This document shows, piece after piece, positions 3,504-19,775 of a stretch of 26,767 bases of DNA. A program made the position numbers and the translations under genes. The notes under the pieces are model-generated. The model saw only the letters and a list, made by a program, of their open reading frames with translations. It was not told the origin of the DNA and made no database searches. Every line of letters begins with the position of its first letter. Positions within the stretch are counted from its first letter, which is position 1. The DNA comes from a virus. Taxonomy: Duplodnaviria > Caudoviricetes. The stretch spans positions 1 through 26,767 of IMG/VR virus record IMGVR_UViG_3300005764_000070; one strand, written 5' to 3'.

Positions 3504-5542
3504 AAGGCCCTCAAGCTGGAGACTTTATAGCCACGCAAATCACCCACCCTGGTGCCGCGCAGACGCTTCACGATGCCGTACACGGTCAGGATGCGGAACT
3601 GGGTGGCCTGGATATCGATGCCCCACGAGCGGCCACCACCCGCTTGCATGGGCAGCATGCGCTCCTGATAACCAAAGACGGCTACCTCGTTGATCGTCTC
3701 GTCGGGCAGCTCGATCGCCAGGCTGCCGGGCGATGCGGCGAAGTCCAGCATGTCGGCGTGGAGCTGGTCCGAATTGAGCCGCTGCACCGCACCGTCCAGG
3801 CGCGTGTGAAACCCGTTGGCGTCGATGGTCATCTGCACGTCGCGTTTGAAGGCCGGCACCACGCGCTCGTGGAAAGCCACGATCTCCAACACCGGCGTGT
3901 CGGCCGTGGTGGTGTTCTGGAGCGAGGCCTTGAGCGACAGAGCGTTACCCACCAGATTGGGCGGCGTGTCGATGCGCTGGCCATTGCTGACGAACTCGCC
4001 GAGGTACAACCAGTTGCCCGTGGGGTCCGTCGGCGGAGCTCCAGCCGAGGCCATGATGCGGTAGTAGAGCAGCACCTCGTCGCCCGGGCGCATCACCGGT
4101 CCGAAGACGGAAAAGCCCAGCCAGTGCTTGAGATCCGCCTGGAACATGGCGTGATGCAGTGGGAAGACGATCTCGCTGGGGCCGGTGATGAACTCGGCGC
4201 CCGAGTCGGCCGCCAGCGGCGAGCGCACCAGCTTGATCCACGTCCACGTGCCGTTGTCGAAGCCGATGTACAGACGGTCCTGGCCGCTCGCGCCGGAGAT
4301 GCCCATCGCCGTGACCCGCACGCTGGCCCAGGTCGCCAGGGCGCCGTCGAACTGATCGTCAAACGAGAAGGTGGTGCCCTGGTCCGTCTCGTGCGGCTCC
4401 CAGTTGCCGTAGCTGAGCAGGTAGCTGCTGGTGGTCGCCGTGTTGTACACGCACAGGTAGGCGCGGTAGCCGCCCCAACCGGTGAACGCCTGCACGTCGC
4501 CCCGTACCGGCGAGGCATTGTCCAGCAGCATGCCGGGGCCGCTCGGGTTGAGCGACTCGGCCGGCACGTCCAGGCGATAGAAACTCGGCCCCACGCGGAA
4601 CCAGAGCGAGCCTAACCAGGCTGCGACGGTGCGCCCGTTCTCGAAACTGGCTGGCCCGCGCAAGCCGGGGAACAGGTCGTTGGTGGTGCCGTCCGAGTTC
4701 AGCGTGTAGACGCTGCCATCAGCCTTGAAGATGTGCAGGCGGTTGGCGGTCTGCTTGATGGCCGTGATGTAGTTCGCTGGCGTACCGATCAGGTATGGCC
4801 CACTCCAGTTGCCGGCCACCTTGGGGTCGCTGGTGACCTTGCGCACCACGCTGTTGGCGGTGTCCGCGGCCCACAGCTCAGGCCCGACCACCTCCAGGCG
4901 ATTGGCCAGAAAGCCGCTCGGCAACGCGCAGTTTGTCCATGTCCCGCCGGGCGTGCGCTCCCATAACGCCCCGTTGTTGAACGCCACATATATGCTCGCA
5001 CCAGCCCCGGCGAACCCACCCTGGAAGACGACGGCATCCAGGGGCAGAGCCGGGCTGAAATCGCGATCGACGGGCTGGAGGTTGGTGTCGTCCGTCCTGC
5101 GGTAGACCTTGGTGCCGGCCAGGATGAACTGCACCGGCGAACCGCTGGCGTTGGGCGCGTCGATGAACTCGTACACCTGGCCGCCGGCGGCCGTGTTGGG
5201 GGTGATCGGGTGCGGCAGCGGCCCCTTGCCGAACAGCCCGCCGTCCACCTGAATGTTGTTGCCCCAGTAGTAGCGCCGATCGCCGAAGCTGATCTGCACG
5301 CGCTCGCCGTAGCCTGCCGTCGGCCGCAGCGGAAACGTCCTCTCTCTATAGACGGGCGCGGAGCCATATTCTTGCACCGAGGGCACCACGCTATCGAGCA
5401 TCTGCTGCTTGCGCGCCAGCATCAGCGTGCCGTCCTGCCCGACCACCAGCATCAGGCCGATGCGATCGATGGGATCGCCCAGGATGCTGCCCATGCGGAG
5501 GTGCCACGGCCAGGGGCGTCGGCGACTGCTGAGCAGGCTCAC
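3500..5542 (-). CDS. 680-aa beta-rich virion structural protein, probable short-tail nozzle/stabilisation protein (T7 gp12 / P22 gp10 analogue)
   Basis: Size, repeated short beta-strand/Gly-Asp turns suggestive of propeller blades, and position between adaptor/fibre genes. The function is inferred. Confidence 0.6.
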   Translation of the reverse strand: MSLLSSRRRPWPWHLRMGSILGDPIDRIGLMLVVGQDGTLMLARKQQMLDSVVPSVQEYGSAPVYRERTFPLRPTAGYGERVQISFGDRRYYWGNNIQVDGGLFGKGPLPHPITPNTAAGGQVYEFIDAPNASGSPVQFILAGTKVYRRTDDTNLQPVDRDFSPALPLDAVVFQGGFAGAGASIYVAFNNGALWERTPGGTWTNCALPSGFLANRLEVVGPELWAADTANSVVRKVTSDPKVAGNWSGPYLIGTPANYITAIKQTANRLHIFKADGSVYTLNSDGTTNDLFPGLRGPASFENGRTVAAWLGSLWFRVGPSFYRLDVPAESLNPSGPGMLLDNASPVRGDVQAFTGWGGYRAYLCVYNTATTSSYLLSYGNWEPHETDQGTTFSFDDQFDGALATWASVRVTAMGISGASGQDRLYIGFDNGTWTWIKLVRSPLAADSGAEFITGPSEIVFPLHHAMFQADLKHWLGFSVFGPVMRPGDEVLLYYRIMASAGAPPTDPTGNWLYLGEFVSNGQRIDTPPNLVGNALSLKASLQNTTTADTPVLEIVAFHERVVPAFKRDVQMTIDANGFHTRLDGAVQRLNSDQLHADMLDFAASPGSLAIELPDETINEVAVFGYQERMLPMQAGGGRSWGIDIQATQFRILTVYGIVKRLRGTRVGDLRGYKVSSLRAL

Positions 5543-5826
5543 TAGATGCCGATGATCCTTGAGATGAAGGTCATGTCCACGGCGTCCAGGGCGGTGTCCA
5601 GATCGGCGATGGCGCTTTTGATGGTCGCCTCCTGGCTAGCGTCGAAGTAGTACGGCGCACCCTTCAGATCGGTGACTGCCAACCACGCGGCATCCTGATT
5701 GATGGTGATCTTGCTGGCCGAAAAGCCTCTGAGGTGGAGGCCGATCAGGCCATTGACCTCGTCGGCGCTCCTGGGCTGGGTGCCGATAGTGGCTGGTGGC
5801 GCGGGAGGATCAGTGGGAATGGTCAT
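5542..5826 (-). CDS. Hypothetical 94-aa protein
   Basis: Overlaps both neighbours (ATGA upstream, TAGTG downstream) and has typical codon bias. Confidence 0.75.
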   Translation of the reverse strand: MTIPTDPPAPPATIGTQPRSADEVNGLIGLHLRGFSASKITINQDAAWLAVTDLKGAPYYFDASQEATIKSAIADLDTALDAVDMTFISRIIGI

Positions 5827-6722
5827 CGGTTCTCCAATGCTGCGAACCTTGCCTCGGTCTTGGCGATGTACTGCTTGAGGGCCTCAAACGTGACCGCCGA
5901 GATGCGGTCATAGTCGAGGGCTATCACGTCGCCGATGGCGTCCAGTACCACGACATTCGGCAGGACTGAGAGCCAATCGTCGGCCACAAACCCCACCTTT
6001 CGATTACCCGTGGCGATTTCCGTATAGCTGACGCCGTGAACACGCTCGTCCATGACCACACCGAGCGGGTCGGCCAGGGTAGCGATGTCGGATTTTGATC
6101 TGCGTGCCGATTGCGGAGTAAAGGCTTGCCCGAGGCAAGTCGCCCAGGCCGAGCCGCCTTGTGTCCGGAACCAGTGCTGGCCACCCTGATTGGCCAGTTG
6201 GTAGAAGCTCACGTTGCCATCACTGGAGATAAGCGCGCCATTGAACGTCAGGGTCTGACCCTTGATGGTCAGGCTGCCGCCACTGTCCAGGCTCATGGTC
6301 TGCACCAGAGAAGCCGGATTCGCACCAGAGGCAGCCATGTACCACTGGTGGGCGCCGCCTACGGTCGAGGTGTACAGCGACCCCTGGTTCGCCACGTTGT
6401 ATCGCTGCCAGTTTGTGCCGTCGTAGTACAGGTTGCAGGTGAGATTAGAGCCTTGCTCAGCGCTCAGAATGGCGAAATTACTCGCGCCTGGAGCTTCGAG
6501 ACTCAAGCAACCTGCTGCGGTCGCAGGGTTGCGGATGATCGCGCTCGGGCCGATCTTGATCTGGCGGCTCAGGTTCAGGTCGCGTGGCCTGCTCGCCCCC
6601 GACGCCCCGATGTCATAGGTCGCATCAGGCGCAAACGTCAGGTTCTGGCTCAGCGGCAGCGTGATACCGCCACTGCTCAGCGGCTGCCAGGCCGCGCCAT
6701 CCCAGTACTTCAGAACAGCCAT
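5823..6722 (-). CDS. Tail fibre/spike protein with a C-terminal intramolecular chaperone (peptidase S74-like) domain
   Basis: SARRSKSDI keeps the S-x4-K spacing of SDxRLKxNI, followed by GFVADD, LDYDRI and a terminal coiled coil. Confidence 0.8.
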   Translation of the reverse strand: MAVLKYWDGAAWQPLSSGGITLPLSQNLTFAPDATYDIGASGASRPRDLNLSRQIKIGPSAIIRNPATAAGCLSLEAPGASNFAILSAEQGSNLTCNLYYDGTNWQRYNVANQGSLYTSTVGGAHQWYMAASGANPASLVQTMSLDSGGSLTIKGQTLTFNGALISSDGNVSFYQLANQGGQHWFRTQGGSAWATCLGQAFTPQSARRSKSDIATLADPLGVVMDERVHGVSYTEIATGNRKVGFVADDWLSVLPNVVVLDAIGDVIALDYDRISAVTFEALKQYIAKTEARFAALENR

Positions 6723-6926
6723 CTACGAGGTGTCTACCCACAGAATCTGCGAGGTGCGAGGCGAGGGCGCGGTCGTACCGACGTACACCTGCCAGGATTG
6801 CCAGGCCGTGCCGTTCCACCAGTACATAACGTTGGTGCTGGTGTCGTAGTACATCTCGCCCACCTGGGGCGTGGCTGGAGCTGCTGCCAGCCGAACGTTG
6901 CGGAGCCGTCCGTAGATCTCAGGCAT
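6723..6926 (-). CDS. 67-aa fibre-associated protein (AP..P..G.hYYDT...hhWW.G..W module)
   Basis: The true start is ATG at 6926 (TGATG overlap), MPEIYGRLRN...ILWVDTS. The track's longer 7364 start overlaps the upstream gene. Confidence 0.8.
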   Translation of the reverse strand: MPEIYGRLRNVRLAAAPATPQVGEMYYDTSTNVMYWWNGTAWQSWQVYVGTTAPSPRTSQILWVDTS

Positions 6927-8287
6927 CAGCCAATGATCGTGGTCCGGATGGTGTTGGCCGTCTGGCTCGCGCCGAAGGTAATCGTCACGTCGCCGTTTGC
7001 CGCCACGCTGATGTCGGGCAGGATGACGGCGCCGGTCGCGTCGATCTGGCACTGCACCAGCAAACCTCGCGAGGCGCGGCAGCCGTGGGTTGCCTGAGTG
7101 ATAGTGATAGTGGCGCCTGCGCCGTGGGTAGCTGACGAGTAGTAGACCACCGACTGGAAGGCGAGCATCGCCTGGGTCACGCCACCCGTGGTGATCTGAA
7201 TCGAATCGGCGTTGACGGTGATCCCCGAGCCAGCCCCTACGTCCAGGCTGTTGCCGGTCTTGGTCAGGCCCGCACCAGCGGTGATCATGCCCGCGCCCGA
7301 GAACTGAGCGAACACCAGTGGGGTGGTATCGAGCGTGATCGGCTGATTGGTGGTCAGTACCCACCCGCTGTCAGCGTTGGCCGTGCCCTCCTCGATGAAG
7401 GTGAACATGCCGGCCGTCATCTCGGCACTCACGTCCGCATCGGTAGCGCGAGTCACGCCGACGGCAGCCCCGTTCCAGACCCAGATGCCGTTCTGGGAGC
7501 CAGTCGTTTGATCCTTCAGCAGAATGCGGTCACCGACGACCAGGGTCACGCCGTCGAGGGTCGCGCCGGGGGAAGACGTGTTGACGTTCGCCGTCGAGGC
7601 GGCGCGGCAAGAGTTCTTGACATCCAGCCCCTGCGCGATGCCATCGACGTAGCCCTTGCTCGCCGCGTCAAGGACGCCTATGGGTGTCGCCAGATTGCTG
7701 ATGCGCTGGTTGTTGAGTGACACCGCCGCAACCGGTGCCGTAATAGCGTCCAGGGTGCGGTTGCCAGGCATGGCTTGCTGGGCACCGGCTCCCAGCGTGC
7801 GGAGGCTGCCGGTAGCCACCACCGCATCCACGGCCATTGGGTCTGAGCCACCTGGCTGGTGGGTGGTGGCGTGCGCCGTCGGCGTGCGAGCGTCAGTGAA
7901 ACGGCTGTCATTGCCCGCCGCTGCCTGGGTCCCGCCTGTACCCAGCGTCCGCAGGCTGGGCGTGCCGGCCGTGCCGTCCTTGTTGGCCGCCGCGACATCG
8001 GTATCCACGATGACGCCCGTGGCGATCTGGACGCTGGTAGCCGTACCGGTGATGTCGCCGGCAAGCTGGATGGTGCCTTGCGTCGTGGTGGTCGCCGGTG
8101 GGGTTCCACCCGCGCCGCCCTTGGCCGATTGCCAGACGCTGCCGTCCCACCACCACAGGGTGTTGTCAACGGTGTTGTAGTAGAGCTGCCCGGTGACAGG
8201 GCTGGAGGGCGCGGTGCCAAGCTGGTGGCCGCGCAGGTTGCGCGCCTCGTACTTGGAGAAGTCCAGGGCGTTGGCAAGCGTTGGCAT
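6926..8287 (-). CDS. Fibre protein (tail or head fibre), 453 aa
   Basis: GQLYYNT..WWWDG module, G.IQLAGD, duplicated SLRTLG.G..QA..GN, RISNLATP...DAASKGYVD neck motif and LDGVTL..GDRILLKDQ...QNGIW, all common in trimeric phage fibres. Confidence 0.8.
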   Translation of the reverse strand: MPTLANALDFSKYEARNLRGHQLGTAPSSPVTGQLYYNTVDNTLWWWDGSVWQSAKGGAGGTPPATTTTQGTIQLAGDITGTATSVQIATGVIVDTDVAAANKDGTAGTPSLRTLGTGGTQAAAGNDSRFTDARTPTAHATTHQPGGSDPMAVDAVVATGSLRTLGAGAQQAMPGNRTLDAITAPVAAVSLNNQRISNLATPIGVLDAASKGYVDGIAQGLDVKNSCRAASTANVNTSSPGATLDGVTLVVGDRILLKDQTTGSQNGIWVWNGAAVGVTRATDADVSAEMTAGMFTFIEEGTANADSGWVLTTNQPITLDTTPLVFAQFSGAGMITAGAGLTKTGNSLDVGAGSGITVNADSIQITTGGVTQAMLAFQSVVYYSSATHGAGATITITQATHGCRASRGLLVQCQIDATGAVILPDISVAANGDVTITFGASQTANTIRTTIIG

Positions 8288-8289
8288 GG

Positions 8290-8730
8290 CTAGTTGAAGT
8301 ACGCCTTTCCGCTGGTTGCGCTACCGAACGAGAGCGTCACCTGAGAAGTACTGTCGTAGTGGATGTCGGGCAGCACGGTAGACCCGCCCGTATCGACCAC
8401 GTCCACGGCGGGGTACTTGCCCAGGGCGTGCGCGACCGTCCATGTCGCTGCCGGCGCCGACTGGTTATGCACGTAGTTCAGGTCGCCGCCACCCGTGCCG
8501 CCGCCAGCCGGCGCGTCAACGTCCACCCACAACACGAGTGTGTCGCGTGGCGAGGGCGCGGCAGGATCGATCCACACCTCCTCGACGGACCCGCTGCCAC
8601 CCTCACCGGGTGGCCCTTGCGGCCCCGGCGGACCGGGTGGGCCTGGTGGTCCCGGCGGACCGGGTGGGCCGGGGTAGCCCCACTCGGGCGGCAGCGGCGT
8701 GCCGCTAACCGGATTCCAGTTGACCGTCAC
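8290..8730 (-). CDS. Collagen-like fibre protein, 146 aa
   Basis: About 10 Gly-X-Y triplets, then a C-terminal Q...A.TW.V.H.LG..P.V.V.D..G...VT..F beta domain. Confidence 0.8.
   Translation of the reverse strand: MTVNWNPVSGTPLPPEWGYPGPPGPPGPPGPPGPPGPQGPPGEGGSGSVEEVWIDPAAPSPRDTLVLWVDVDAPAGGGTGGGDLNYVHNQSAPAATWTVAHALGKYPAVDVVDTGGSTVLPDIHYDSTSQVTLSFGSATSGKAYFN
8591..8680 (-). repeat. Collagen (GPP)n coding repeat
   Basis: GYP-(GPP)5-GPQ-GPP-GEG-GSG. The exact 20-mer cccggcggaccgggtgggcc occurs at 8624 and 8651. Confidence 0.9.
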
Positions 8731-9620
8731 AACACCACGCCCTGGCCTGCGGTGCCGACCACTTCACCGAAACCGATGCGACGAGCAGGCGGTGGACCCC
8801 AGATCAGGCTCTGGCGCGTGAACTCGCGTGCGGCCATCTCCTGGGTCGCCTGGAGATTGCCAGCCGCTGCCGCGAACATATGACTCGGGAACAGGTGCCA
8901 GGCCTCGATGTGGCCTGCGCTCGCGGCGTAGTCGAGGTCCACGGCTAACTGGTCGGTGTCCTGGGTTGGACCCGTGCTGGACTCAGCGCTATTCACCCAG
9001 GACCAGGCCGGCCGCGAGGCGGTCACCCACAAGCTGGCCGGCGCGTAACTGCCGCTGGTCCCGCCAAGCAGGACGTGCCCCTGCTGCACGTACGCGTGGA
9101 AGGGAGCCTCAGCCCACGGTTTCAGCCAGCCGTACTGTGCGCCCGTGACCTGATCCGGGTTCGTCAGCCACGGGAACTGATAAGTCAGGTCGATGTCGCC
9201 GTACCCGTTGGTGAGGCCAGCAGGCACCAGCTCGCTGGTGAAGCAGCGCCGCAGTCCGGCCAGCACCGCCTGGCGCAGCTCCTGCTCGGGGTGCAGATGG
9301 GTGAAGTCGGCGAGCTCGCCGGGCACCATCGGCGCGTACCAGTTGCGATCGATGACCACGCGGCCTGAGGCCGAGTCGAAACTCTGCACCTGGCGCGTGC
9401 GGTCCTGGGCGTTGTAGGCCACCGTACTGCCGTCCGCTTTGACGCCGCGGCGCAGCAGCCACAGGTTCTCAGGGCCGCCCAGGATCGAGGACGAGCGCAG
9501 CGTGGGCATGTACGCCGAGGTCGCCGTCGAGGTGGTCGGCACCTGAGCGTCCTGGGCAGCCTGGAAAAAAGGCCCGGTCCTGCGGGCCACCTCCTGCTCC
9601 AGTTGCGCGAGCGTGATCAC
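8727..9620 (-). CDS. Putative head-tail adaptor, 297 aa
   Basis: N-terminal TLAQL..EVARR helix, alpha-beta-alpha layout, first large gene after the capsid cluster. The function is inferred from position. Confidence 0.55.
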   Translation of the reverse strand: MITLAQLEQEVARRTGPFFQAAQDAQVPTTSTATSAYMPTLRSSSILGGPENLWLLRRGVKADGSTVAYNAQDRTRQVQSFDSASGRVVIDRNWYAPMVPGELADFTHLHPEQELRQAVLAGLRRCFTSELVPAGLTNGYGDIDLTYQFPWLTNPDQVTGAQYGWLKPWAEAPFHAYVQQGHVLLGGTSGSYAPASLWVTASRPAWSWVNSAESSTGPTQDTDQLAVDLDYAASAGHIEAWHLFPSHMFAAAAGNLQATQEMAAREFTRQSLIWGPPPARRIGFGEVVGTAGQGVVL

Positions 9621-10030
9621 AGCGTCCTGAAGGTAAGATCCGGCGTGAGCGAGGTATAGCTGCCCACGGTCACCGAGATGCGGTAGTGATAGGTGGTGCC
9701 CGTGGTCAGCGCTGTCAGGTTGGCCACGATCGCGCCCGTGCCAGCCGCTGGCGTGGCGTTCTGGTTGCTGCCGTAGGCCGTGGTCGTGCCGTAGTTGACC
9801 ACCATGCCCGTGCAGGCCACGTCCACGGTCCAGTTGACGGTCGCCGTGGTGGTAGCGATCGGCGCCACGTAGATGCCGCGGATGTTGGCGCCCTGCATGG
9901 CCGCCTTGCCCGAATTGATCAGGTCGCGCACGTACGCCTCGTCGGTGATGCTGGCGGCGTGCCCGGCCCCGTGAATGGTGGTCGGCGTGACCGAGTCCAC
10001 CGCCGGGGCGAGGAAGACAATGTTGGACAT
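9617..10030 (-). CDS. Putative capsid decoration protein: small N-terminal domain plus FN3-like domain
   Basis: TTATVNWT...V.YG....YG...L.AL..GTTYHYRI...FRT is an FN3 signature. Confidence 0.75.
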   Translation of the reverse strand: MSNIVFLAPAVDSVTPTTIHGAGHAASITDEAYVRDLINSGKAAMQGANIRGIYVAPIATTTATVNWTVDVACTGMVVNYGTTTAYGSNQNATPAAGTGAIVANLTALTTGTTYHYRISVTVGSYTSLTPDLTFRTL

Positions 10031-10224
10031 CAGGCTGCCGGTGCCGAGAACAGCGCAGGTGGCGGCGGCCCGTCGAGGAGCTCCGCCTTGCCCTCGAGCA
10101 AGAGGCTCTTGATGTAGTCGTAGTCGGCCTCGACGTAGTCCGTCTCGTGCCCCGGCCCGTAGGTGGTGGCCGGGTGGTCAGGACGCGGGTCCGTCGCCGG
10201 AGCCAGGAAGCGGATGCGCGGCAT
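10030..10224 (-). CDS. 64-aa post-capsid protein, paralogue of its neighbours
   Basis: TGATG overlaps on both sides. IRFLAPA.D...GH...EGKA is shared with the 137-aa protein. Confidence 0.8.
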   Translation of the reverse strand: MPRIRFLAPATDPRPDHPATTYGPGHETDYVEADYDYIKSLLLEGKAELLDGPPPPALFSAPAA

Positions 10225-10454
10225 CAGCCCTTGCTCCGGCTACTCGGCTTTGTCTGGACCGTGTCTTCTCTGGCGGTGCGCTCGGCATAGTGGGTGGGTT
10301 CTGGCTCGGCCTGTTCCGCGGCGAGGTCCGACACCTTGCCGTCGGCGCGCCAGGCGGCAAATACCTCGTCGTCGACGTCCACCTCCGTGCCGGCCGCGAA
10401 GTTCTCACCCGTCTTGGGATGGGTGAGCGGCACCAGCGTTCGTACTTTCGGCAT
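10224..10454 (-). CDS. 76-aa post-capsid protein
   Basis: Start reassigned to ATG at 10454 (TAATG overlap): [29 protein letters not shown]...DGKV. Confidence 0.8.
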   Translation of the reverse strand: MPKVRTLVPLTHPKTGENFAAGTEVDVDDEVFAAWRADGKVSDLAAEQAEPEPTHYAERTAREDTVQTKPSSRSKG

Positions 10455-10591
10455 TACTTCTTGCCTTTCCTGCCCTGCCGCGCCTGGCGCAGCGCCGCGG
10501 CGACGGCCTGCTTCTGTGGGTGGCCGGCCTTGACCATCTCTCGAATGTTCTGACTGATCGTGGCGCGGCTCGAGCCTTTCTTGAGCGGCAT
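10454..10591 (-). CDS. 45-aa highly basic protein (MPLKKG.S...IS.NI.E....G.P.KQAVA type)
   Basis: Not in the track. [45 protein letters not shown], with 1-nt overlaps on both sides. Confidence 0.85.
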
Positions 10592-10865: not shown

Positions 10866-11873
10866 CTAGCCCTCACCACCGGTGGCGGCCTTCTGCTGCA
10901 GCGCAAAGAAGGGATAGCGGGACGCCTTGGTCGATTGCTGGCGGTTGACCGGGTTGGGGATCGCCCACGCGAAGCGAGCGGTCACGCGCAACGCGACCAT
11001 GTCCTGCTGCATCAGGTTGTACTGAATGACGGGCGGGCTACCGTTGTCGGTGATCACGCCGGTGTCGAACATCTCCATGCTGATGTCGTCGCGGATCGCC
11101 AGCATGCTCTGGTCCCACTGGCCACCAATCATGGAATAGCCCGAGGCGCCGGTGTTGAAGCTGGTCAGGCCCGCGTTGGAGAAAATGATCGGCTCGCCGA
11201 ACAGGCTGCCGGTGTTGATCGACGCATTCGGCGTGGCGTTGTCGCCCAGGAAGAGCAGACCTTTCTGTGCATCGCGCAGACCACGCAGCTTGGCCTTGAC
11301 CTGGCGGCGTGCCCAGAAGCCGGTCACGTCGAAGCCGTCGGCTTCCACCGTGGCCATGGCGTTGTTGATGTCGTCCAGGTAGTCGACGGCGCTGGAGACA
11401 ACCACGAGGTTGCCCGCGGAGTTCGCGCCGGTGACGATCGCTGGCGGGAAGGTGGTGGGCGCGTTGGTGCCGAAGAACACGGCGTCATCGAGCGCCACGC
11501 CAAACGCCTCGGTGACTTTGGGCTTGACCTGGCTCCAGAAGTCGTAGTCCATGTCATCGAGCAGGTTCTTGGCGATCGGCACGATGACGGCCATCTCTTC
11601 AGCGTTGAGATACACGTTGTCCCACTGGAGCGAGGTGGTCTGCTTCATGCCGATGTCGCGCGCGTCCAGGCTCGCGCCGGTGATCCAGTACGCGGTCGGC
11701 AGCTGGCTCATAACCGGGATGCGCTGCTGCGCTCGCTTCATCCTCACGTGAGGCATCAACTGGAGCGCGGCGCTCTTGACCTCGATTGACTGGACGATGT
11801 CGCGCTGAACGTCCTCGGGAATGAGCGGCCCCGAACCTGGGGTCGCACGGGTGGCGATAGAGCTGTACGGAAT
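10866..11873 (-). CDS. Major capsid protein, HK97 fold (335 aa if initiated at ATT 11873)
   Basis: LIPEDVQRDIV...SAALQL, EEMAVIVPI...LLDD, EAFG.ALD.AV.FG and NL.QQDMVALR...RFAW are HK97-family motifs. The frame is open 38 codons upstream of the track's TTG start. Confidence 0.92.
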   Translation of the reverse strand: MPYSSIATRATPGSGPLIPEDVQRDIVQSIEVKSAALQLMPHVRMKRAQQRIPVMSQLPTAYWITGASLDARDIGMKQTTSLQWDNVYLNAEEMAVIVPIAKNLLDDMDYDFWSQVKPKVTEAFGVALDDAVFFGTNAPTTFPPAIVTGANSAGNLVVVSSAVDYLDDINNAMATVEADGFDVTGFWARRQVKAKLRGLRDAQKGLLFLGDNATPNASINTGSLFGEPIIFSNAGLTSFNTGASGYSMIGGQWDQSMLAIRDDISMEMFDTGVITDNGSPPVIQYNLMQQDMVALRVTARFAWAIPNPVNRQQSTKASRYPFFALQQKAATGGEG

Positions 11874-11874
11874 G

Positions 11875-11905
11875 GGAGTGGCCCTCTATGGAACGGGGCC
11901 AGTCC
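11875..11905 (-). promoter_or_regulatory. mRNA hairpin overlapping the capsid Shine-Dalgarno
   Basis: Minus strand GGA-C-TGGCCC [11 nt] GGGCCA-C-TCC. The SD AGAGGG lies 8 nt before ATT and partly in the 3' arm. Confidence 0.5.
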
Positions 11906-11910
11906 GAAAA

Positions 11911-12669
11911 CTAGCCCGCGCTGTTGTGTCGATTGCCGACGCCGTAGTACTCGCGAAAGATGTCCGACATCTGCTTGTCAGCGGCTGAGCCGCTCGAGGC
12001 GGGCAGCAGATCCGGTTCGGTGGTGCCGCCGCGCGCCTCGCTCAGGATCTGTTTCCTGAACGCCTGGTTGCGCCTGAGCTTGCCTTCGGCTTCTTTTTCG
12101 CCCTCGGCCTTCCAGTGCTTTTCCAGGCTCTTCAGCGCCTCGGCGACCACCAGCTTGCGTCCGTCCAGTCCCTTGCCCGCGCCCTCGAGCTGCATGATCC
12201 GCTGACGTTCGCGGGGCGGCAGCACCTCCATCAGGGGGTCGATCGAGATCCGATCGTGCTGGCTGCCCACGGTGGCGAAGAAGTCCGTCAGGCCAGCGCT
12301 CTGCTGCTGCTGTTGCTCGGCCTCGCGCTCCTGTTGCGCGTATGCCCACGGATCGTCGTCGCGGAGTTTGCGACGGTCTTGCGCTCGCTGGTCGGCGGCC
12401 CGTTTCGCCTCGCGGCGATCGGTTTCGGCCTGAACCCGACGCTGTAACTCGTCCTCGGTCAGCGTCAGCGTCTTCGACGCTCCGTCCGGCTCGCCTGACT
12501 CCTGCGTCTCAGTCTGAGTCTCCGGGGCTGGCCTGCGGTTGAACAGCCGCTGCCACCAGCCTGGTGAAGACTCCTCCTGAGTCGGCTCCGAAGTCGGCTC
12601 CGAAGCGGGTGCATCGGGCGACTGCGCCTCCTGGGAAGGAGTGTTTTCTGCTTGTTCGTCGGCCATCAT
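11911..12669 (-). CDS. Capsid scaffolding protein
   Basis: Acidic disordered N-terminus and charged coiled coil (LTEDELQRRVQAETDRR), immediately upstream of the capsid gene. No protease motif. Confidence 0.75.
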   Translation of the reverse strand: MMADEQAENTPSQEAQSPDAPASEPTSEPTQEESSPGWWQRLFNRRPAPETQTETQESGEPDGASKTLTLTEDELQRRVQAETDRREAKRAADQRAQDRRKLRDDDPWAYAQQEREAEQQQQQSAGLTDFFATVGSQHDRISIDPLMEVLPPRERQRIMQLEGAGKGLDGRKLVVAEALKSLEKHWKAEGEKEAEGKLRRNQAFRKQILSEARGGTTEPDLLPASSGSAADKQMSDIFREYYGVGNRHNSAG

Positions 12670-12678
12670 AGAACCTTT

Positions 12679-14565
12679 CTACGGATACGCGTAGTCCGGC
12701 GCGTACTGATCCCACGGATTGCCCGTGGGGATCGCCCCGAAGTTGGGCGCCGCCGGCGGCGTGGGCTGCATGTTGGGCACCAGCGCTTGCTGGCGCTGGG
12801 CCAGCACGTCGGCAGCCTGGCGGTTCTGCCACTCGCTGAACCAGTCGGAGGTGGGCAGCTCCGGCGTGGGCACCGACGTGCGCGTGCCCGGCGGGTTAGG
12901 CGCGCCGGGCGGCAGCGGTGGTGACGGAGGCGGCGCGGGCGCGCCGGGCGGGGCGTACTGGTTGCGGCCCAGTGCCGTCGCCACGTCGACGTTCTGGAAG
13001 TTGGGGGCCGGCAGCCCGTTGGCCTGCGCCGCGGTGGGGTCGATGTACTTGAGCGCGTTCATCGTGCCCTTCTGGTACAGGTCGACCGGGTTGGGACCCT
13101 TCCACGTCAGGGCGCTCGGGTTGGTCGGCGTCTGGCCTTTGGCGAGCTGGGCCGAGGCAGCGTAGAACTCCGGGTTGGTGACCGGGTGCGCGGCCTGCAG
13201 CGCCTTGAAGGCGTTGACCGCGCCGGTGCCGTACGGCTCCGCCGCGGAGGCCGCGGAGGTGCGCGCCTTCATCTGGTCGAGCGCCTGCTGCTGGTAGGCC
13301 TGCTGCTTGACCGCGTCGAGTTGGCCCAGCTGCGGCGCGACGTTGGCGTCGTACCACGTGTTGTAGTCCTTGAGCGCGTTCTCAGCGGTGTACGACGGGT
13401 CGCCTTTGGCGGCTCGGGCCTGGACCTCGTCGCTCTTCTGCTGCATCAGCGTCTGGATCTGGCCGATGCGCGCCTGGACGTCGGCCAGCGTCTTGGGCTG
13501 GAACGACGGGTTCGCCTGCGAGGTCAGCTTGCCGGAGGCGTCCATGGTGGTGATGTACGGCTGATCGGCACCGGCCGTGACCTGGGTCGGCTTCTCGGGC
13601 ACGGCCCGCGCACCGATGTCGGTCGTCTTCCACTCCCCACCCTCGTACGTCTGGGTGACGTGGTAGTTGTTCTCGATCGCCGGCCGCGTGTCGCCCGGCT
13701 GCGGCGCGCCGGGAATGGCTGAGGCACCCACCTGGGTGGTGCCCCAGTTCCCGTTCTGGTACGTCTTGGTGACGTAGCGGCCCTGGACGACGTCGGTCAT
13801 CGTGTCGCCGTTCTTGGGCTGCGAACCGGGCTGTAGCGTGGTCAGGTTCTGGCCGTCCCAGGCGAACATCGAGCCGCCCTGGCCCTGCACGATCTGACGC
13901 TTGTCCGGCTCGGCCGGGCGGAGCTCCTTGAGCGTCGTGCCGTCCCACGAGAACTTCTGGCCGCGCTGGCCGTCGACGACGGTCGGCTTCTGGGCGTTGG
14001 CGTCGGCCGGCACGGTGACGCGATTGCTCGAGTTGCTGGGGTCCTGGAGCGCGATGACCTTGCTGGTGGGGTCCGCCGGATTGGCGTGGATCTGCACCCA
14101 CGACGCCGGGTCGCTGGGTGGGCGGCTACCGGCTGGAGCGGCTTTGCTCTCGGGCGGGATGCTGGTGTCGAGCTCGAACGCGCCGGTGGCGCCCGTGCCG
14201 CCCGGTGGCGTGCCCTTCGGATTCCAGCGGTAGGTGTACGTCTTGACCGAGCCGTCCGGCTGCGGCATGTCGATCGTCTTGGTTGTCGGCGCGGCCTGCG
14301 ACGTCGAGGCAGCAGGCGGCTTGAGATACGGCAGCATCGACCGCTCGTCGCTGTTCAACTTGTCGAGGTTGTTTCGGGCAACCTGCATCGCAGCAACGTT
14401 GTTCTTGCCGTCTGGATTCAGAACGGGGTCGACGCCACCTGAGTCGATGATGGCTTGCTGACGCGCCTTGTCCTGCTGAAGCCGCTGCCACTGCGCCAGG
14501 ACCACCTGGTTGAAACTGGCGGTATCGGTCGGGAGTTGAGGCTGCTGAGTCTGATCCGGATCCAT
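12679..14565 (-). CDS. 628-aa Pro/Gln/Thr-rich protein with internal repeats, putative ejection/internal virion protein
   Basis: Long ORF with GGGAG upstream and two pairs of internal repeats. The function is inferred from composition and context. Confidence 0.6.
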   Translation of the reverse strand: MDPDQTQQPQLPTDTASFNQVVLAQWQRLQQDKARQQAIIDSGGVDPVLNPDGKNNVAAMQVARNNLDKLNSDERSMLPYLKPPAASTSQAAPTTKTIDMPQPDGSVKTYTYRWNPKGTPPGGTGATGAFELDTSIPPESKAAPAGSRPPSDPASWVQIHANPADPTSKVIALQDPSNSSNRVTVPADANAQKPTVVDGQRGQKFSWDGTTLKELRPAEPDKRQIVQGQGGSMFAWDGQNLTTLQPGSQPKNGDTMTDVVQGRYVTKTYQNGNWGTTQVGASAIPGAPQPGDTRPAIENNYHVTQTYEGGEWKTTDIGARAVPEKPTQVTAGADQPYITTMDASGKLTSQANPSFQPKTLADVQARIGQIQTLMQQKSDEVQARAAKGDPSYTAENALKDYNTWYDANVAPQLGQLDAVKQQAYQQQALDQMKARTSAASAAEPYGTGAVNAFKALQAAHPVTNPEFYAASAQLAKGQTPTNPSALTWKGPNPVDLYQKGTMNALKYIDPTAAQANGLPAPNFQNVDVATALGRNQYAPPGAPAPPPSPPLPPGAPNPPGTRTSVPTPELPTSDWFSEWQNRQAADVLAQRQQALVPNMQPTPPAAPNFGAIPTGNPWDQYAPDYAYP

Positions 14566-14568
14566 GCG

Positions 14569-17500
14569 TTATCTCCCTTGCGCCGCGGCGAGGTGGTCTT
14601 CGATCAGTTTGTCGATCGCTCGATTCTGCTGCTGCTGAATCTGTTCGGAGACGCGATACACCGGGCTGACGATGCCGCCGTAGAGCGACGCAAGCTGGAC
14701 CTCCTCGTTCGTCGGCGGCGGCGCGTGGGTGGGGTCGGCCTTGTAGGCGTTCCAGCGCGCCACGGCGCGGTCGATGTGCGCCTCCTCCTGCGCGTCGGTC
14801 ACGCCCGGGTATTTCTGCGGCAGGCCGGTGTCCGCCGCCGAGTTGGGAATACCCACCTGATCGCGCAGCGTGTCGCGCAGGTGCAGCTGCGCGGTCCGCA
14901 TCATGCTGAGTTTGCGGTCATCGGTCGTGTTCGGGTCGTTGTATTCCGGCAGCTGGCGCACGGTCTTGGCCACCACCGGTTCCTGGAACTCGCCCATGAG
15001 CTGGTCCAGGCGGTCGTACTTGTCGGCGGCCATCTGGCCACCGTAGTTGCGAACGACGCCGGAGGTCAGCCCGCCGATGATGGCGCCCGGCAGCGACGTG
15101 CCTTCCTTGCCCATGGCCGCGTCGGTCACGCCCAGGCCGTAGCGGCCGAGCGTGCCCAGGTTCTCATTAATAAGGAAGTCGATCTGCATCGGCGACACGC
15201 CGTAGGCTTCGCCCAGACGCCGCGCCAGCAGACTGGTGCGGTCGTTGGCCTGGGCCGACGGCGGCAGATCCTGATACGCCTGGGGCACGATCGGCAGCCC
15301 GGTGTAGAAACGGCGGTTGGCCGCGAGCTCCGAGGGCGTCCGCAGCGGTGCCGGAAAGAACGAGCCGGCCACGGAGCTGGGCGAATCACCCGAAATGGGC
15401 GAGATCGTGCTGAGCGCGCCGAGTCCCACGTCCTGTGGCGAACGCGGGTCCCAGTGCGACTGGTCGGGGTCGGCGTGGCTCGAGATCCAGTTGACAGGAT
15501 CGGTAAACGCGGACAACTCGCCCAGCGGGATGCTGAGACGGTTGATCGTCTTGTAGCCGATGCCGTTGGCGTTCTTCTCCGACCCCGGCAGCATGATGAT
15601 GGCGTTCTGGCGACGTTCGTACTCGGGGATGTCGTAGAACGCCGGGTCCTGCTGGTTGCGCTCGTTGTTGGCCGCCACGGCAGCAGCCAGGCCGCCCAGC
15701 CTCAGCCTGGCGATGGGATCGTCGCGCAGGCTACGGCCGATGTTCAGCAGGCCCTGGCTGCGGGCGTTCAGGAACAGCGAGGCCATGTTCAGCTGCTGCA
15801 GGATGTCGCCGCTGCGCTGGAAGTCGACGGTGGCGCGACGTCCGGAGGTAGCCGCTTCCGCCGGCGACTCGCCGGCGAGCAGGTGCTGCTCGAAGGCGGC
15901 CAGGTGGGGTCCCTGCTCGATGACTTCGCCGGCGCGGGTGATGAACTTGAGCTTGAGCGCGTCCATGGCCAGCCGCGCCAGGTCGCTCTGGTCGTGCAGC
16001 ACGAGGCCACCGGTGTCGGCAATGAGCTTGTCGATGTCCTGTGGCGAACGCTGATAGAGCGACTCCATGCCGCCACCGGCCTGGATGTACTGGCGCCACA
16101 GATCGTCCTGCCTGGCAGCCGAGAGCATGCCGCGGGGGATGTTCTTCGCCGTCGTGCCGCCCTCGCGCACAAAGGTAGTGATGAAGTCGCGGATCGCGTT
16201 GGTGGCCAGGAACGAGGGACTCGCTGCGGTCGCGCCCCAGCGCAGGGGCGCGTTCAGCGCCTGGAGCACCTTGCCGAGCGCACCGGGGTCGGTGCCCTCG
16301 AGGTTCTTCATCAGCGACTCGAGGCCCGGCACCTGGCTGACGTCGTAGTAGACGCGCTTGCCGTTCTCGTATTTGCTGACGCGGCCCGGCACGTCGCCGC
16401 TCATGCGCCTGAGCACGGTGGCGATGTTCGACGGCGCACCCAGCAGCTGGCTCATCGGTGCGCCGCCGGGGCCGGCCACCTCCGGACCGGTGACGAGCTG
16501 CATCGGGTTGATGCGTTTGACGAGCGGCGCACCGGCGGCATCCACCAGGGTGGGGTCGTTCATCGCCGCGTCGAGGATCGCGCTGGCGACCCCGTTGCGG
16601 TTGTTGAGCACGTCACTCTGCATGAAGTGGCGCACCAGCGAGCGCAGCGGCTGCTCGGTCGCGTCCTCTGAACCCTCGCCGGCCAGCCGCCGCAGCAAGT
16701 TGTCGGTGGTAACCAGCCGATTGCCGCCGCCGCTCACCCCGCCGGCTTCCTCGTCCAGATACTTCATCAGCACGGTGGGGTTGTAGTGGGGCTGCTCCGT
16801 CATCAGCCGCTGCGCCAGGTCGGGGTCGATCATGCCCGCGTCCACACGCGCCTGGAGTAGACGGGTGGTCGCGTCGTTCAGCATCTTGTCGCCCTGTTGC
16901 AGCGCGGCCCAGCCTTTGGGACCCACCTCCTGCTCGAGCGAGTCGAGCGCGGCCTGGGCGTCCGCGGCGGTCTTGACCCCGCCCGAAGCCTCGCGTGCGC
17001 CGCCGTACAGGTTGGCGACTTCCAGATCGCGCTGGTACTTGCGGAACTCGTTCAGGTACTCGTCGCCTTCTTTCTGACCCAGTACCTCGCGCACGCCACG
17101 CAGCGCCGGCGTGATCTCGTCATCCACCAGCAGCTTGGCCCGTGCGCCGCGGCCGGCGTACGTCGCCAGCAATGATTCGGCATCCATCTCCGGCGTGAAC
17201 GCCGACCCGAGCGCTTCCCTGGCGCGGCCGGACATCTGGTTGATCTGCGCCCACTTGTCGGCGGCTGCCGTGTCGAGCGTGCCGGTGCGCCCGCCCAGCC
17301 CGATCGCGTTGGCCACGCCTTCGGCGACGCGGTCGGGCAGCGACGGCTGCGTGTCCTGGTCACGGAACATCTTGATCGTCGCGTCGCGCACGGCGTTGCC
17401 GGTGGTGCTGGGCTTGCGCGTCGCGGCGTAAGCGACCTCCGGCGGCGAGAGCACGTCGAGCGCGCCCAGCCCCCGTCCGGCAAGTTCGCCGGCTGCCTCC

Positions 17501-19689
17501 CGCGCCAGCCTGGCACCCTGTTCCTCGCCACCCATCGGGATCAGCAAGTTGGCGATCTGGCCGGCGACCTCGCGAGGACCGACCTGTAGCGGCCCGACCT
17601 CGAACCCGAAGTCCTCGTGGCCGGGCACGCCGGCGCGCTCGAGGCCGGCCGTGGCTGCCTCGCCTAGGTTGGGCGCGAGCTGCATCGCGAGCTGGCTCCC
17701 GGCCACGCCGGGATTGAGCTCCGCGCTAATCACGCCCTGTGGGGTCAGGTTCTCGAGCACCTGGCCGACCCTGGACTGCTCCTGCTCGCCGAGGTTACCG
17801 AGGGCGCCGCCCACCGCCTGCTTGACGCCGCCCAGCACAGGCGCCTGGTCGAAATTTTCGCCGGCCTGGCCGAGCACGTCGCGCTGCGACTGAGGCATGG
17901 CGTTCTGGCCGACGGAGTCGATGAAGTCACCGAAGGCGCTCTTGAGCCGCTCCGCCGGAGTCTGGTCCTCCACGATCGCGGGAGGGCTGGTGGATGTGGT
18001 CGTCGACGTCGAGTCCGGCAGGATCGACTCGGTCGGCGTCGCTGGCTGGAACGCGTCGTGGAAGGTCGCGCCCACGTTCGAGAAGAAGTCACCGAAACCT
18101 TGAGCAACGCCACGATCAGCGGTGCTGGTGGCCGGTACCTGCGGGTTGTCGGCAAATAGCGCACCCTGGATGCGGCCCATGCGCTGCTGCATCTGGTCGG
18201 CGGTCATCCACTCAGAGCCGCCCCTGAGGTCCAGCCCGGACTGGCCGACGTGGAACGCGCCACTCTGCGGGTCGTAGCCGTCGGCAAAGAAGTAGTGGCC
18301 AGGGGTGCTGATGGTCACCGGGTTGCCGGTCTGCGCCTCGCGGGCCATGGCGTTCACGTCCGGTCCCACTGCTCGCGTGGCCACGCCGAGTTTGTCCATC
18401 AGCGCTTTTTCGGACCCCAGCCCGGCCATGCCGCCGGCACTCGTCCAGCCCACCGTGGCAGCCAGGTCGGTGGCTTCCCTGAGCGTCGGGTTGCGGCCGT
18501 ACATCTGGGCGAAGCGCACCGCCGCGGCCGGGCCGCACGCAGCATACGCCTCGTCGTTGGAGAGCTGCGGCTGGCCGAACTGGCTGACCTGGCTGGCCGG
18601 CTGCGCGGCTGCCTGCTGCGCCCAGCCACCGGTCCTGGCCAGCAGATCCTGGGGCGTCAGGCCCGGTCCCGCGCTGAGCTCGTTGAAAGCGCTGGCGTAG
18701 TTGCGCCGAGCGGCGGAGGCAGGGTCGGTGAAACCGGCCGGCCGCTCCGCCTGGGCGGCCACCCACGAGGCCTTCTCCGCGCCGGTGAGGCCCTGCGGCG
18801 CCGACTGGTACGCCTTTGCGTACAGCGGGATGATCCTGCTCGCCTGCATCTCGGCGCCCTCGGAGCCGAGGAGCTGCGCCTCGGGGATGCCGGCGCCCAT
18901 GCCGCCCAGGTCGAACTGGAACAGGCCGCGGCCACCGCCACCCTGCTGGACGGCGTTGATGTTCCAGCCGCTCTCCGCCTTGGCTCCGGCCGCGACCGTG
19001 CGAATGAAGTCGGGATCGTTGGCGAGCTCGCCCGGCGCGTTGCGGCTGATCAACTGTCCCAGCCAGTCGGGCACGCCGGAGACGGGAGCCGACGTGCCCG
19101 CTGGTGAGGGGGGAGTGGGCAGCTGAAAGCTCGAGGCGAACTGGTCGAGGTCGGCGCCGCTGCCCTGCGCCGCCGTGAGCGCGTTGCCGACCACGTCGTG
19201 CATGCCCTGACCGGCCTGGTTGATGCTCGAGCCGAAGCTCTGGGCAAAGGCGTCGACGTCGCCGCCGGCCTGCTGCACGGCGTTCAGCCCGTTGCCGAAC
19301 ACGTCGGCGAGCCACGACGAGGACAGGCCCCCACCCCCCGGCTGTGGTGGCGTGGGTGCTGGAGGTGCTGGCGACGGTTCGGGGGGTGCCGGCGCCGCGG
19401 CCTCCGGCTGCTCCGGAGATGGCCCTGACGGAGCAGTCTCGGGCGGCGGCGTAGGCTCAGGAGGGAGCGTCGGCGGCGGCGCGGCCCAGCCGCCGATATT
19501 GGCCAGGCTCTGCTCGATGCTCGGCGGCGTGGGCGGTGGCGGGGTCGCGACGGCGCCCACGGTGGCGCTGCGATCGCCGAGCATCTGGTCCAGGCCGAAG
19601 CCGTCGATCTTCTGCTGGAGCTGCTGCTGGAGTTGCTGCTGCTGGTAGGCGTCCCAGTCCTGCTGGTCGATGTCCGGCAGCATCGTCAC
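14569..19689 (-). CDS. ~1706-aa multidomain internal virion/polyvalent protein: Pro-rich N-terminus, lysozyme-like domain, C39-like peptidase, C-terminal LPD38-like domain
   Basis: AESGWN...GRGLFQ...ERPA; SQF...ACGPAA...GHY..ADGYD; YDIPEYER...P..E..AN..FYTG.PIVP...TS.LA..LG....SP.QID.LI...LG.LG. Start is GTG 19689 (GTGA overlap) or ATG 19683, not 19743. Confidence 0.85.
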   Translation of the reverse strand: MTMLPDIDQQDWDAYQQQQLQQQLQQKIDGFGLDQMLGDRSATVGAVATPPPPTPPSIEQSLANIGGWAAPPPTLPPEPTPPPETAPSGPSPEQPEAAAPAPPEPSPAPPAPTPPQPGGGGLSSSWLADVFGNGLNAVQQAGGDVDAFAQSFGSSINQAGQGMHDVVGNALTAAQGSGADLDQFASSFQLPTPPSPAGTSAPVSGVPDWLGQLISRNAPGELANDPDFIRTVAAGAKAESGWNINAVQQGGGGRGLFQFDLGGMGAGIPEAQLLGSEGAEMQASRIIPLYAKAYQSAPQGLTGAEKASWVAAQAERPAGFTDPASAARRNYASAFNELSAGPGLTPQDLLARTGGWAQQAAAQPASQVSQFGQPQLSNDEAYAACGPAAAVRFAQMYGRNPTLREATDLAATVGWTSAGGMAGLGSEKALMDKLGVATRAVGPDVNAMAREAQTGNPVTISTPGHYFFADGYDPQSGAFHVGQSGLDLRGGSEWMTADQMQQRMGRIQGALFADNPQVPATSTADRGVAQGFGDFFSNVGATFHDAFQPATPTESILPDSTSTTTSTSPPAIVEDQTPAERLKSAFGDFIDSVGQNAMPQSQRDVLGQAGENFDQAPVLGGVKQAVGGALGNLGEQEQSRVGQVLENLTPQGVISAELNPGVAGSQLAMQLAPNLGEAATAGLERAGVPGHEDFGFEVGPLQVGPREVAGQIANLLIPMGGEEQGARLAREAAGELAGRGLGALDVLSPPEVAYAATRKPSTTGNAVRDATIKMFRDQDTQPSLPDRVAEGVANAIGLGGRTGTLDTAAADKWAQINQMSGRAREALGSAFTPEMDAESLLATYAGRGARAKLLVDDEITPALRGVREVLGQKEGDEYLNEFRKYQRDLEVANLYGGAREASGGVKTAADAQAALDSLEQEVGPKGWAALQQGDKMLNDATTRLLQARVDAGMIDPDLAQRLMTEQPHYNPTVLMKYLDEEAGGVSGGGNRLVTTDNLLRRLAGEGSEDATEQPLRSLVRHFMQSDVLNNRNGVASAILDAAMNDPTLVDAAGAPLVKRINPMQLVTGPEVAGPGGAPMSQLLGAPSNIATVLRRMSGDVPGRVSKYENGKRVYYDVSQVPGLESLMKNLEGTDPGALGKVLQALNAPLRWGATAASPSFLATNAIRDFITTFVREGGTTAKNIPRGMLSAARQDDLWRQYIQAGGGMESLYQRSPQDIDKLIADTGGLVLHDQSDLARLAMDALKLKFITRAGEVIEQGPHLAAFEQHLLAGESPAEAATSGRRATVDFQRSGDILQQLNMASLFLNARSQGLLNIGRSLRDDPIARLRLGGLAAAVAANNERNQQDPAFYDIPEYERRQNAIIMLPGSEKNANGIGYKTINRLSIPLGELSAFTDPVNWISSHADPDQSHWDPRSPQDVGLGALSTISPISGDSPSSVAGSFFPAPLRTPSELAANRRFYTGLPIVPQAYQDLPPSAQANDRTSLLARRLGEAYGVSPMQIDFLINENLGTLGRYGLGVTDAAMGKEGTSLPGAIIGGLTSGVVRNYGGQMAADKYDRLDQLMGEFQEPVVAKTVRQLPEYNDPNTTDDRKLSMMRTAQLHLRDTLRDQVGIPNSAADTGLPQKYPGVTDAQEEAHIDRAVARWNAYKADPTHAPPPTNEEVQLASLYGGIVSPVYRVSEQIQQQQNRAIDKLIEDHLAAAQGR

Positions 19690-19775
19690 GGGTTCATGCT
19701 CCGCATGGCGATGATGACGATCAACGCCACCAGCGTGCCCCACGCGACGAAGATGCGGAACTGGTCATCGCTCAC
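19686..19775 (-). CDS. 29-aa single-TM peptide
   Basis: Not in the track. MSDDQFRIFVAWGTLVALIVIIAMRSMNP, with GTGA overlaps at both ends and GC-rich third positions. Confidence 0.7.
   Translation of the reverse strand: MSDDQFRIFVAWGTLVALIVIIAMRSMNP

Follow-up and report, generated by a model that had tools for sequence, protein, structure and literature searches.

We describe here the junction between a putative scaffold gene and the major capsid gene in a 26.8-kb virus record, which was analysed over its whole length of 26,767 nucleotides (hereafter the window) and carries a late operon on the minus strand (Table 1). Most of the genes that follow the capsid gene (10030-10591 and 5542-9620, minus strand) overlap stop-to-start (TGATG, GTGA, ATGA) and have canonical start codons, and the first of them has its own Shine-Dalgarno (SD) sequence inside the last capsid codons. 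A 1,700-aa protein with an LPD38 match and a weak C39 peptidase match is encoded between the portal-like and scaffold genes (14569-19743, minus strand).

Table 1. Annotated and predicted features of the scaffold-capsid region and the late operon of the window.
Feature	Position	Strand	Basis
Late operon members: terminase (PF04466), large putative internal proteins, 252-aa gene, capsid gene (PF05065), amidase		-	Pfam
-35 position of the predicted promoter: TACGCG, poor match	12688..12693	-	TTG at homologous spacing in relatives
Predicted -10 element TATGAT on the scaffold ATG-ATG start	12665..12670	-	conserved TA-NN-AT
Putative scaffold gene, 252 aa	11911..12669	-	position ahead of the capsid gene
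Arm 1: last scaffold bases, stop TAG and 2 nt (GGGCTAGTT); predicted to pair with arm 2 in the open state	11909..11917	-	folds, covariation
UUCG loop of helix 1:2	11905..11908	-	predicted fold
Arm 2 (GGACTGGCCCC), common to helix 1:2 and helix 2:3	11895..11905	-	predicted folds
In-frame TAG closing the capsid frame upstream	11886..11888	-	sequence
SD-like AGAGGG, 8 nt before ATT	11882..11887	-	sequence
Arm 3: SD and spacer, predicted to pair with arm 2 in the closed state (hairpin of the first-pass annotation)	11875..11886	-	predicted folds
ATT at the capsid start position	11871..11873	-	homologue alignment, contigs
Major capsid gene, HK97-fold PF05065, 335 aa from ATT	10866..11873	-	Pfam and start alignment

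The close relatives of the window are contigs of 40-45 kb from IMG/VR and JGI metagenomes, and the five runs that contain the window stretch are all soil metagenomes, with no RNA run listed among them. Four of the five complete relatives encode a tyrosine integrase; neither an IF3_C match nor a phage-encoded sigma factor was found in any of the five. The closest matches in cellular genomes reach just 31-42% and those in cultured phages about 41% or less, and no host organism was named by cluster look-up or by the integrase search. No Rfam families were found in the window. A tRNA scan of seven stretches of G001-G003 gave a single call, a tRNA-Leu(CAG) of 93 nt in the complete relative G001 (L337:4823-4915; ARAGORN).

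The 252-aa gene is regarded as the putative scaffold gene by its position. Profile searches of this gene gave no match in Pfam or PHROG, and the weak leads are a similarity to the C-terminus of Eileen gp5 (E 0.18) and PF09306 as the closest named Atlas cluster (0.89, with 76 shared features). Its GC3 (0.79 in the window, 0.74 on average) is below that of most neighbours, and its codons 3-8 (window 12625-12660, minus strand) are A-rich and conserved at the DNA level across the relatives. A conserved hairpin that was seen by eye near the 5' end of the gene was discarded because a synonymous shuffle gave it no support (12/23).

The capsid protein belongs to the HK97-fold class, with a PF05065 match (E 2.9e-27) of 96.2 bits against a cut-off of 24.2 that extends over residues 15-306 of the protein and positions 2-270 of the 280 in the profile. 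Gene callers predict a product of 296-297 aa that begins at 11759 or 11756, where the first canonical in-frame starts (TTG and ATG, respectively) lie 38 codons past ATT. The first-pass annotation had placed the start at ATT 11873 instead, with a conserved N-terminal segment preceding the first ATG, GTG or TTG, and this placement is borne out by the Pfam match, which begins at residue 15 (counted from ATT), whereas TTG is residue 39. The absence of ATG, GTG, TTG and CTG in frame before 11759 holds and extends to ACG, and the upstream TAG and the AGAGGG preceding ATT were both located as described; the residues after ATT are P-Y-S-S-I-A-T-R. A miscalled ATG was checked for with one contig each from the runs X2 and X5, which span 11871-11873 with 0 differing letters; the check was made on contigs instead of reads, the window DNA may itself derive from X2, and the runs X1 and X3 have no cover there. 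The nearest relative (97% at the amino acid level) has ACG at the homologous codon.

The start regions of the capsid gene were compared in two sets of loci. The first set consisted of 80 viral loci, 75 of them with a complete start (introns interrupt 3 of the others, and 2 are partial), and gave 60 distinct start regions together with the window; the second set consisted of 160 further loci, from which 11 partial or interrupted ones were dropped, and added 32 new distinct regions to a total of 92. The codon compared, which stands before P/S/T-Y in the homologues, is ATG or one base off ATG in all 92 regions (GTG 24, ACG 22, ATT 19, ATG 17, TTG 6, ATC 3, CTG 1), as expected if the homologous ATT of the window is the start. 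ATG in relatives had been named as evidence against the ATT start; it does occur in 17 of the 92 regions, and fixes the start position rather than contradicting it. A near-cognate codon (ACG, ATT, ATC or CTG) is found in 45 regions, none of which has a canonical in-frame start upstream. The distance from the SD sequence is 8-9 nt in 40 of these 45, whereas that of canonical starts is spread from 5 to 10 nt. Residues Y3, R9, T11, P12, G13 and P16-E20 are invariant among 15 diverse capsid proteins, and codons 2-38 (91 rows) have 1274 synonymous versus 572 non-synonymous differences, so this segment is conserved as protein. With an ATG-like codon at SD distance and no canonical start at the homologous N-terminus, the gene has the sequence pattern of near-cognate starts typified by infC, and it almost certainly starts at ATT 11873.

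Among the genes compared, the near-cognate start is a trait of the capsid gene. A canonical start is lacking nearby in 29 of 59 capsid genes versus none of 31 scaffold genes; the corresponding counts are 0/56, 0/51, 0/46, 4/55, 0/38 and 0/30 for the better-sampled neighbours and 1/4 and 1/2 for two poorly sampled neighbour genes. A phage-wide relaxation of initiation is ruled out because the neighbour genes use ATG or GTG, and C-to-U editing of ACG would not account for ATT, ATC or CTG. On a capsid-gene tree of 60 rows, whose bootstrap values are not fully settled, the label canonical or near-cognate requires 13 changes, 9 of them forced by well-supported branches, versus a mean of 20.3 after shuffling; the sister pairs include ATT/ACG, ACG/TTG and ATT/GTG. 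We infer selection against ATG that acts at the capsid gene alone.

Constrained folding of the RNA at the scaffold-capsid junction (scaffold stop TAG, 11913-11911, minus strand) yielded two mutually exclusive helices that use the same arm 2. In the closed form (helix 2:3), GGA (11905-11903) and TGGCCCC (11901-11895) are paired with 11886-11875. This is the SD-overlapping stem, 5 nt after the scaffold stop, that the first-pass annotation had reported, and it is present in the minimum-energy fold (-29.2 kcal/mol, z -2.13, with 8 of 200 shuffles as stable). In the open form (helix 1:2), arm 2 is paired with the end of the scaffold gene as GGGCUAGUU-UUCG-GACUGGCCC, with -18.4 kcal/mol in the window versus -16.6 kcal/mol for the closed form. 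The two forms differ across loci by a median of 0.6 kcal/mol and are separated by a median barrier of 12.3 kcal/mol.

In a structure-blind alignment, 91.1% of the cells of helix 1:2 are paired (59.4% at most in slid registers), with 20 two-sided changes versus 7.6 in shuffled alignments, and at least two bases of the stop codon lie inside this helix in 48 of 70 loci. The 28 loci that end in G-GGC-stop, 26 of which have the arm-2 core, were used to determine covariation with the stop codon. Both variable stop bases have a Watson-Crick match in 16 of the 26 (TAG/CT 6, TGA/TC 8, TAA/TT 2; permutation mean 7.3) and in 7 of 10 new loci. The core of helix 2:3 is 86.6% paired, and its covariation in a fixed register did not exceed that of shuffles (33 and 62 of 500); by eye, the register slides to cover GTG starts. 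When the scaffold end was masked, 42 of 49 loci had a higher predicted opening cost than the spacer-shuffled control (14.9 versus 9.4 kcal/mol); the support for helix 2:3 is energetic and comes from modelled folds, not from covariation. A loose three-arm test was passed by 55 of 70 loci and failed by 15, while 286 of 700 shuffles passed as well. The loci are related, so that p-values make the support look stronger than it is, and the counts ignore kinship. Taken with these limits, the comparisons indicate that both helices are very probably under selection. No terminator was found on the coding strand of the scaffold-capsid gap. Nested in helix 1:2 of 22 of 81 loci (e.g., L012, L013 and L026), but absent in the window, is a small hairpin that carries a bulged U and has a loop of 4-6 nt (mostly GCUAA), which is a possible protein-binding site; a search with the strict motif found no second copy at scaffold starts.

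A further conserved pattern coincides with the scaffold start. Of 68 distinct scaffold starts, 67 are full-length and one, being partial, was left aside; in 11 loci the rule used found no start. The ATG lies inside a TA-NN-AT hexamer in 51 of the 67, TTG is located upstream of the hexamer in 32 (at a spacing of 17 nt in 23 and 18 nt in 9), and one or the other element is present in 63. The controls gave 0/327 for TA-NN-AT and 6/327 for TTG at homologous ATG starts of other genes, and 0/98 and 2/98 at SD-led ATG starts without an overlapping stop, where one of the two was a slipped-in scaffold gene. A perfect TTGACA is present in 7 of the 16 starts where TA is missing versus 0 of the 51 where it is present. 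Tandem ATG-ATG contributes 17 of the TA matches, and 34 of the 49 remaining starts still have TA; 18 of the 32 TTG are TTGA and may include an upstream stop. The -10 and -35 elements of a sigma70/sigmaA promoter are thus recognizable as a signature of the family and not in the window alone, which has the -10 element only and gave no hit in a strict consensus promoter scan. The signature is absent from the two outgroup scaffold starts examined (L169 and L171, with ATG at the capsid gene). It is probable, from this conservation, that a sigma70-like promoter overlaps the scaffold start codon. Transcription from sigma70 promoters starts 6-8 nt after the -10 hexamer, which would place the start at approximately 12659-12657, past the scaffold start codon. 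SD scores are weak at the in-frame internal starts of the window scaffold gene, with -5.5 kcal/mol as the best value. An mRNA from such a promoter would lack the scaffold start codon, and no ribosome would cross its arm 1, which is what an inverse switch requires. One control start in L116, upstream of the homologue of the window gene at 3500-5542, has TTGACG at promoter spacing and a -10 position on its ATG.

Translational control specific to the capsid gene, which the first-pass annotation had proposed, is likely, and the SD-blocking stem is supported. Its assumption that ribosomes ending on the scaffold gene open the capsid gene probably has the wrong sign, as the competing helix holds the scaffold stop and frees the SD sequence. 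When the RNA was masked to position +5 past the scaffold stop, the cost of opening the capsid site rose in 51 of 70 loci overall. In the first set of 49, which is without 4 loci with gaps of <20 nt and without insert-bearing loci, it rose in 36 and fell in 9 (mean +4.0 kcal/mol, versus nulls of +2.4 kcal/mol for synonymous recoding and -0.5 kcal/mol for a spacer shuffle); among the 21 held-out loci, which include a near-duplicate (L268, of L009), it rose in 15 and fell in 2. A terminating ribosome covers roughly 10-13 nt past the stop. In 36 of the 55 loci that pass the three-arm test, the shared arm begins at least 16 nt past the scaffold stop and hence beyond this cover; in 17 it begins within 12 nt. 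For the window, masking to +12 or further returned the opening cost to the naked value, with the blocking stem melted. In naked RNA (33 nt of upstream and 18 nt of downstream context), the SD sequence is paired with p>0.5 in 57 of 70 loci, whereas helix 1:2 reaches p>0.5 in only 19, so that the open state would need kinetics or a ligand. The height of the barrier and the earlier transcription of the open helix suggest that this helix may persist until a ribosome unwinds it. The modelled folds make it likely that scaffold translation closes the capsid gene, opposite to the earlier assumption; whether such inverse coupling is the working mode appears evenly balanced.

The explanation that we consider best, and to which we give about an even chance, is that the capsid gene is gated by a two-state RNA that would be shut by scaffold ribosomes and open on mRNA from the internal promoter. 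On the read-through late mRNA, a ribosome that reaches the scaffold stop would unwind helix 1:2, and the freed arm 2 would pair with the SD sequence and block capsid initiation. On an mRNA that begins just inside the scaffold gene, arm 1 would remain uncrossed, helix 1:2 would form first, and the SD sequence would be free. Either the near-cognate codon or the burial of a GTG in the stem would damp leaky initiation, and the arrangement would serve to decouple the synthesis of capsid from that of scaffold, in timing or in ratio. More tentatively, and with somewhat less than even confidence, we propose that the promoter in the scaffold start codon gives rise to a decapitated, scaffold-silent mRNA, that the bistable RNA lets a given mRNA serve either scaffold or capsid translation but not both, that selection holds the capsid start one base off ATG, and that the trait may recur in unrelated phages, where it would be hidden by gene callers.

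The closed helix includes the start codon in 20 of 24 loci with GTG or TTG, 14 of 36 with a near-cognate codon and 3 of 10 with ATG; the more frequent burial of GTG and TTG than of near-cognate codons suggests that burial and codon are interchangeable dampers. In 14 of the 92 regions, an insert lies between the switch and the capsid start. The codon is still near-cognate (ACG, ATT or ATC) in 6 of these 14, so the switch seems dispensable and the codon seems to be retained for a separate reason. AUU, AUC and CUG starts reached 1-2% of AUG in E. coli (bioRxiv 10.1101/063800); AUU competed in vitro at about 25-60%, and infC is described as fairly well expressed (PMC5499595). A weak start on the most abundant protein speaks against the explanation that we consider best; the weakness might be offset by an ample supply of mRNA from the putative internal promoter, by a host that is more tolerant of such starts, or by discrimination that is lost late.

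Among the alternatives, a switch held by a protein would have the closed fold as its default, with a late phage protein (the scaffold or another) binding helix 1:2 or the inner hairpin and holding the site open, and with the overlap with the stop codon being incidental. The mostly paired SD sequence in 57 of 70 naked RNAs agrees with this, as do a CG-Y-U-bulge hairpin, which 22 of 81 loci have at most 75 nt from the capsid start (expectation, about 0.014 per stretch of this length), and the P22 scaffold, which one report implicates in translational autoregulation (bioRxiv 2022.12.13.520362). We nevertheless consider a protein-held switch unlikely, since the inner hairpin is missing from the window and several close relatives, the sequence of helix 1:2 varies freely, the strict motif has no second copy at scaffold starts, and 48 of 70 loci place at least two stop-codon bases within helix 1:2 even though spacers of 50 nt leave room for it elsewhere. 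The positive coupling assumed in the first-pass annotation, by which terminating scaffold ribosomes melt the stem and reinitiate, or admit others, at the weak codon, is rather improbable. It leaves unexplained both the covariation of helix 1:2 with the stop codon and a promoter that skips the scaffold start, and it is at odds with shared arms at least 16 nt past the stop in 36 of 55 loci and with the loci L006, L021 and L221, where an antisense HNH gene puts a near-cognate start 530-570 nt away from the scaffold stop; in its favour are the block lifted in the window by a mask of at least 12 nt past the stop, the 17 of 55 loci whose shared arm begins no more than 12 nt past the stop, and an upstream stop 0-4 nt before the capsid start in L069, L045, L296 and L306.

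Static damping, in which codon and stems keep capsid synthesis low (e.g., in a lysogen) or make it depend on IF3, on ppGpp or on the supply of ribosomes, with no switching by the scaffold gene, would accord with the 6 of 14 insert-bearing regions that keep a near-cognate codon in the absence of the switch, with the integrase in 4 of 5 complete relatives, and with the loss of non-AUG mRNAs under nutrient limitation and ppGpp, as described for in vitro competition (PMC5499595). An anti-blocking helix would be superfluous for a static damper, and yet the support for helix 1:2 is better than that for helix 2:3, and IF3_C was matched in 0 of 5 relatives; as a full account of the locus static damping is improbable, but for the codon itself it can be compatible with gating by the two-state RNA. 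That no initiation takes place at ATT, owing to an assembly error, a start at 11759 or 11756, or the production of a scaffold-capsid fusion through readthrough, a frameshift or hopping as in T4 gene 60, is scarcely credible. The shorter form chosen by gene callers would fit this, as would a stem-loop with Gly codon, stop and UUCG loop that resembles the T4 gene 60 take-off site; an in-frame GGC landing codon is absent from the window gap, however, and gap lengths occur in all three frames (21/28/24), so that neither the landing codon nor the constant frame relation of the T4 gene 60 bypass is found. Together with the agreement of the X2 and X5 contigs, the N-terminal conservation and the ATG-like codon in 92 of 92 regions, the gap frames lead us to reject error, downstream start, fusion and hopping.

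Hidden or weak starts that are opened by upstream translation or by a phage protein are known from the coat-lysis and coat-replicase pairs of MS2, genes V and VII of M13, and the TIS and Com of Mu mom. The present locus differs in that the anti-blocking helix spans the upstream stop and the promoter signature removes the upstream start codon. In P22, gp8 control acts on the synthesis of the scaffold itself, and we know of no switch or near-cognate start at the P22 coat gene. The likeness lies in post-transcriptional control around a scaffold/coat pair (bioRxiv 10.1101/2022.12.13.520362). A sequence relation between gp8 and the window scaffold gene is a weak lead; scaffold autoregulation as in P22, if it applied here, would make the switch a ratio homeostat. 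The closest cultured relative is gp6 of Arthrobacter phage Eileen (40.7% identity), which has the scaffold gene directly upstream and whose annotated capsid gene includes the N-terminal part and begins 21 nt after the scaffold gene.

The AUU starts of infC and pcnB in E. coli share with the capsid gene a near-cognate codon at a fixed distance from the SD sequence, and AUU/AUC in infC is described as a target of IF3 autoregulation (PMC5499595; bioRxiv 063800); here, the gene is a phage capsid gene, its start toggles among seven ATG-like codons, and a two-state RNA lies ahead of it. In attenuation by upstream ORFs (ermCL-ermC, toiL-topAI), a ribosome on the upstream ORF likewise selects the fold that hides or frees a downstream site, with leaders typically under 50 codons (PMC12121999). 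The predicted folds of the window agree with such attenuators in having exclusive helices, one hiding the SD sequence and the other overlapping the upstream ORF. They differ from them in that the upstream ORF of 252 codons is not a short leader with conditional stalling. The predicted effect of a ribosome has the opposite sign in 51 of 70 loci at the +5 mask but depends on the footprint in the window. The upstream ORF here is a full structural gene of about 250 codons, the sensitive arm is its stop codon, the presence of the ribosome is predicted to correspond to the closed state, and there is no sign of a stalling peptide or of a drug.

The strongest start sites would be expected at major capsid genes, yet at the capsid start of this family ATG is a minority choice (17 of 92). 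For the question of how tailed phages set the ratio and order of scaffold and capsid, the locus offers a compact device of about 60 nt and a putative promoter, for which natural variants supply compensatory changes. If our reading is correct, it represents an inverse translational coupling between two full structural genes. The error in annotation is systematic, as many database entries of the family are cut to 282-319 aa and have lost the conserved N-terminal residues. No description of near-cognate capsid starts or of such a switch was found in the open-access literature, which excludes older subscription papers, and a three-part capsid control of this kind, as read from the sequences, appears to be undescribed.

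Of the 14 insert-bearing regions, 13 have an HNH-like frame, and NUMOD4-HNH was confirmed for 4. Antisense NUMOD4-HNH genes are located at the capsid start in L006 (2477-2995), L014 (2342-2977), L021 (2478-3002), L020, L043, L075, L221, L227, L229 and L261; at antisense HNH inserts, the old switch, the SD sequence and sometimes ATT remain upstream, and several of the antisense genes look leaderless, with TANNNT 6-9 nt before the start codon. Three loci (L247, L321 and L322) have no N-terminal match before residue 20. Group I introns (RF00028) are located near capsid codon 17 in L037 (2744-2993), L062 (995-1305) and L073 (2776-2993). Sense-strand HNH genes take over the capsid start in L046 (2595-2993), L296 and L306, and a new capsid start (ATT, ACG or ATC) follows 4 nt after their end; L046 matches the leader of L249.
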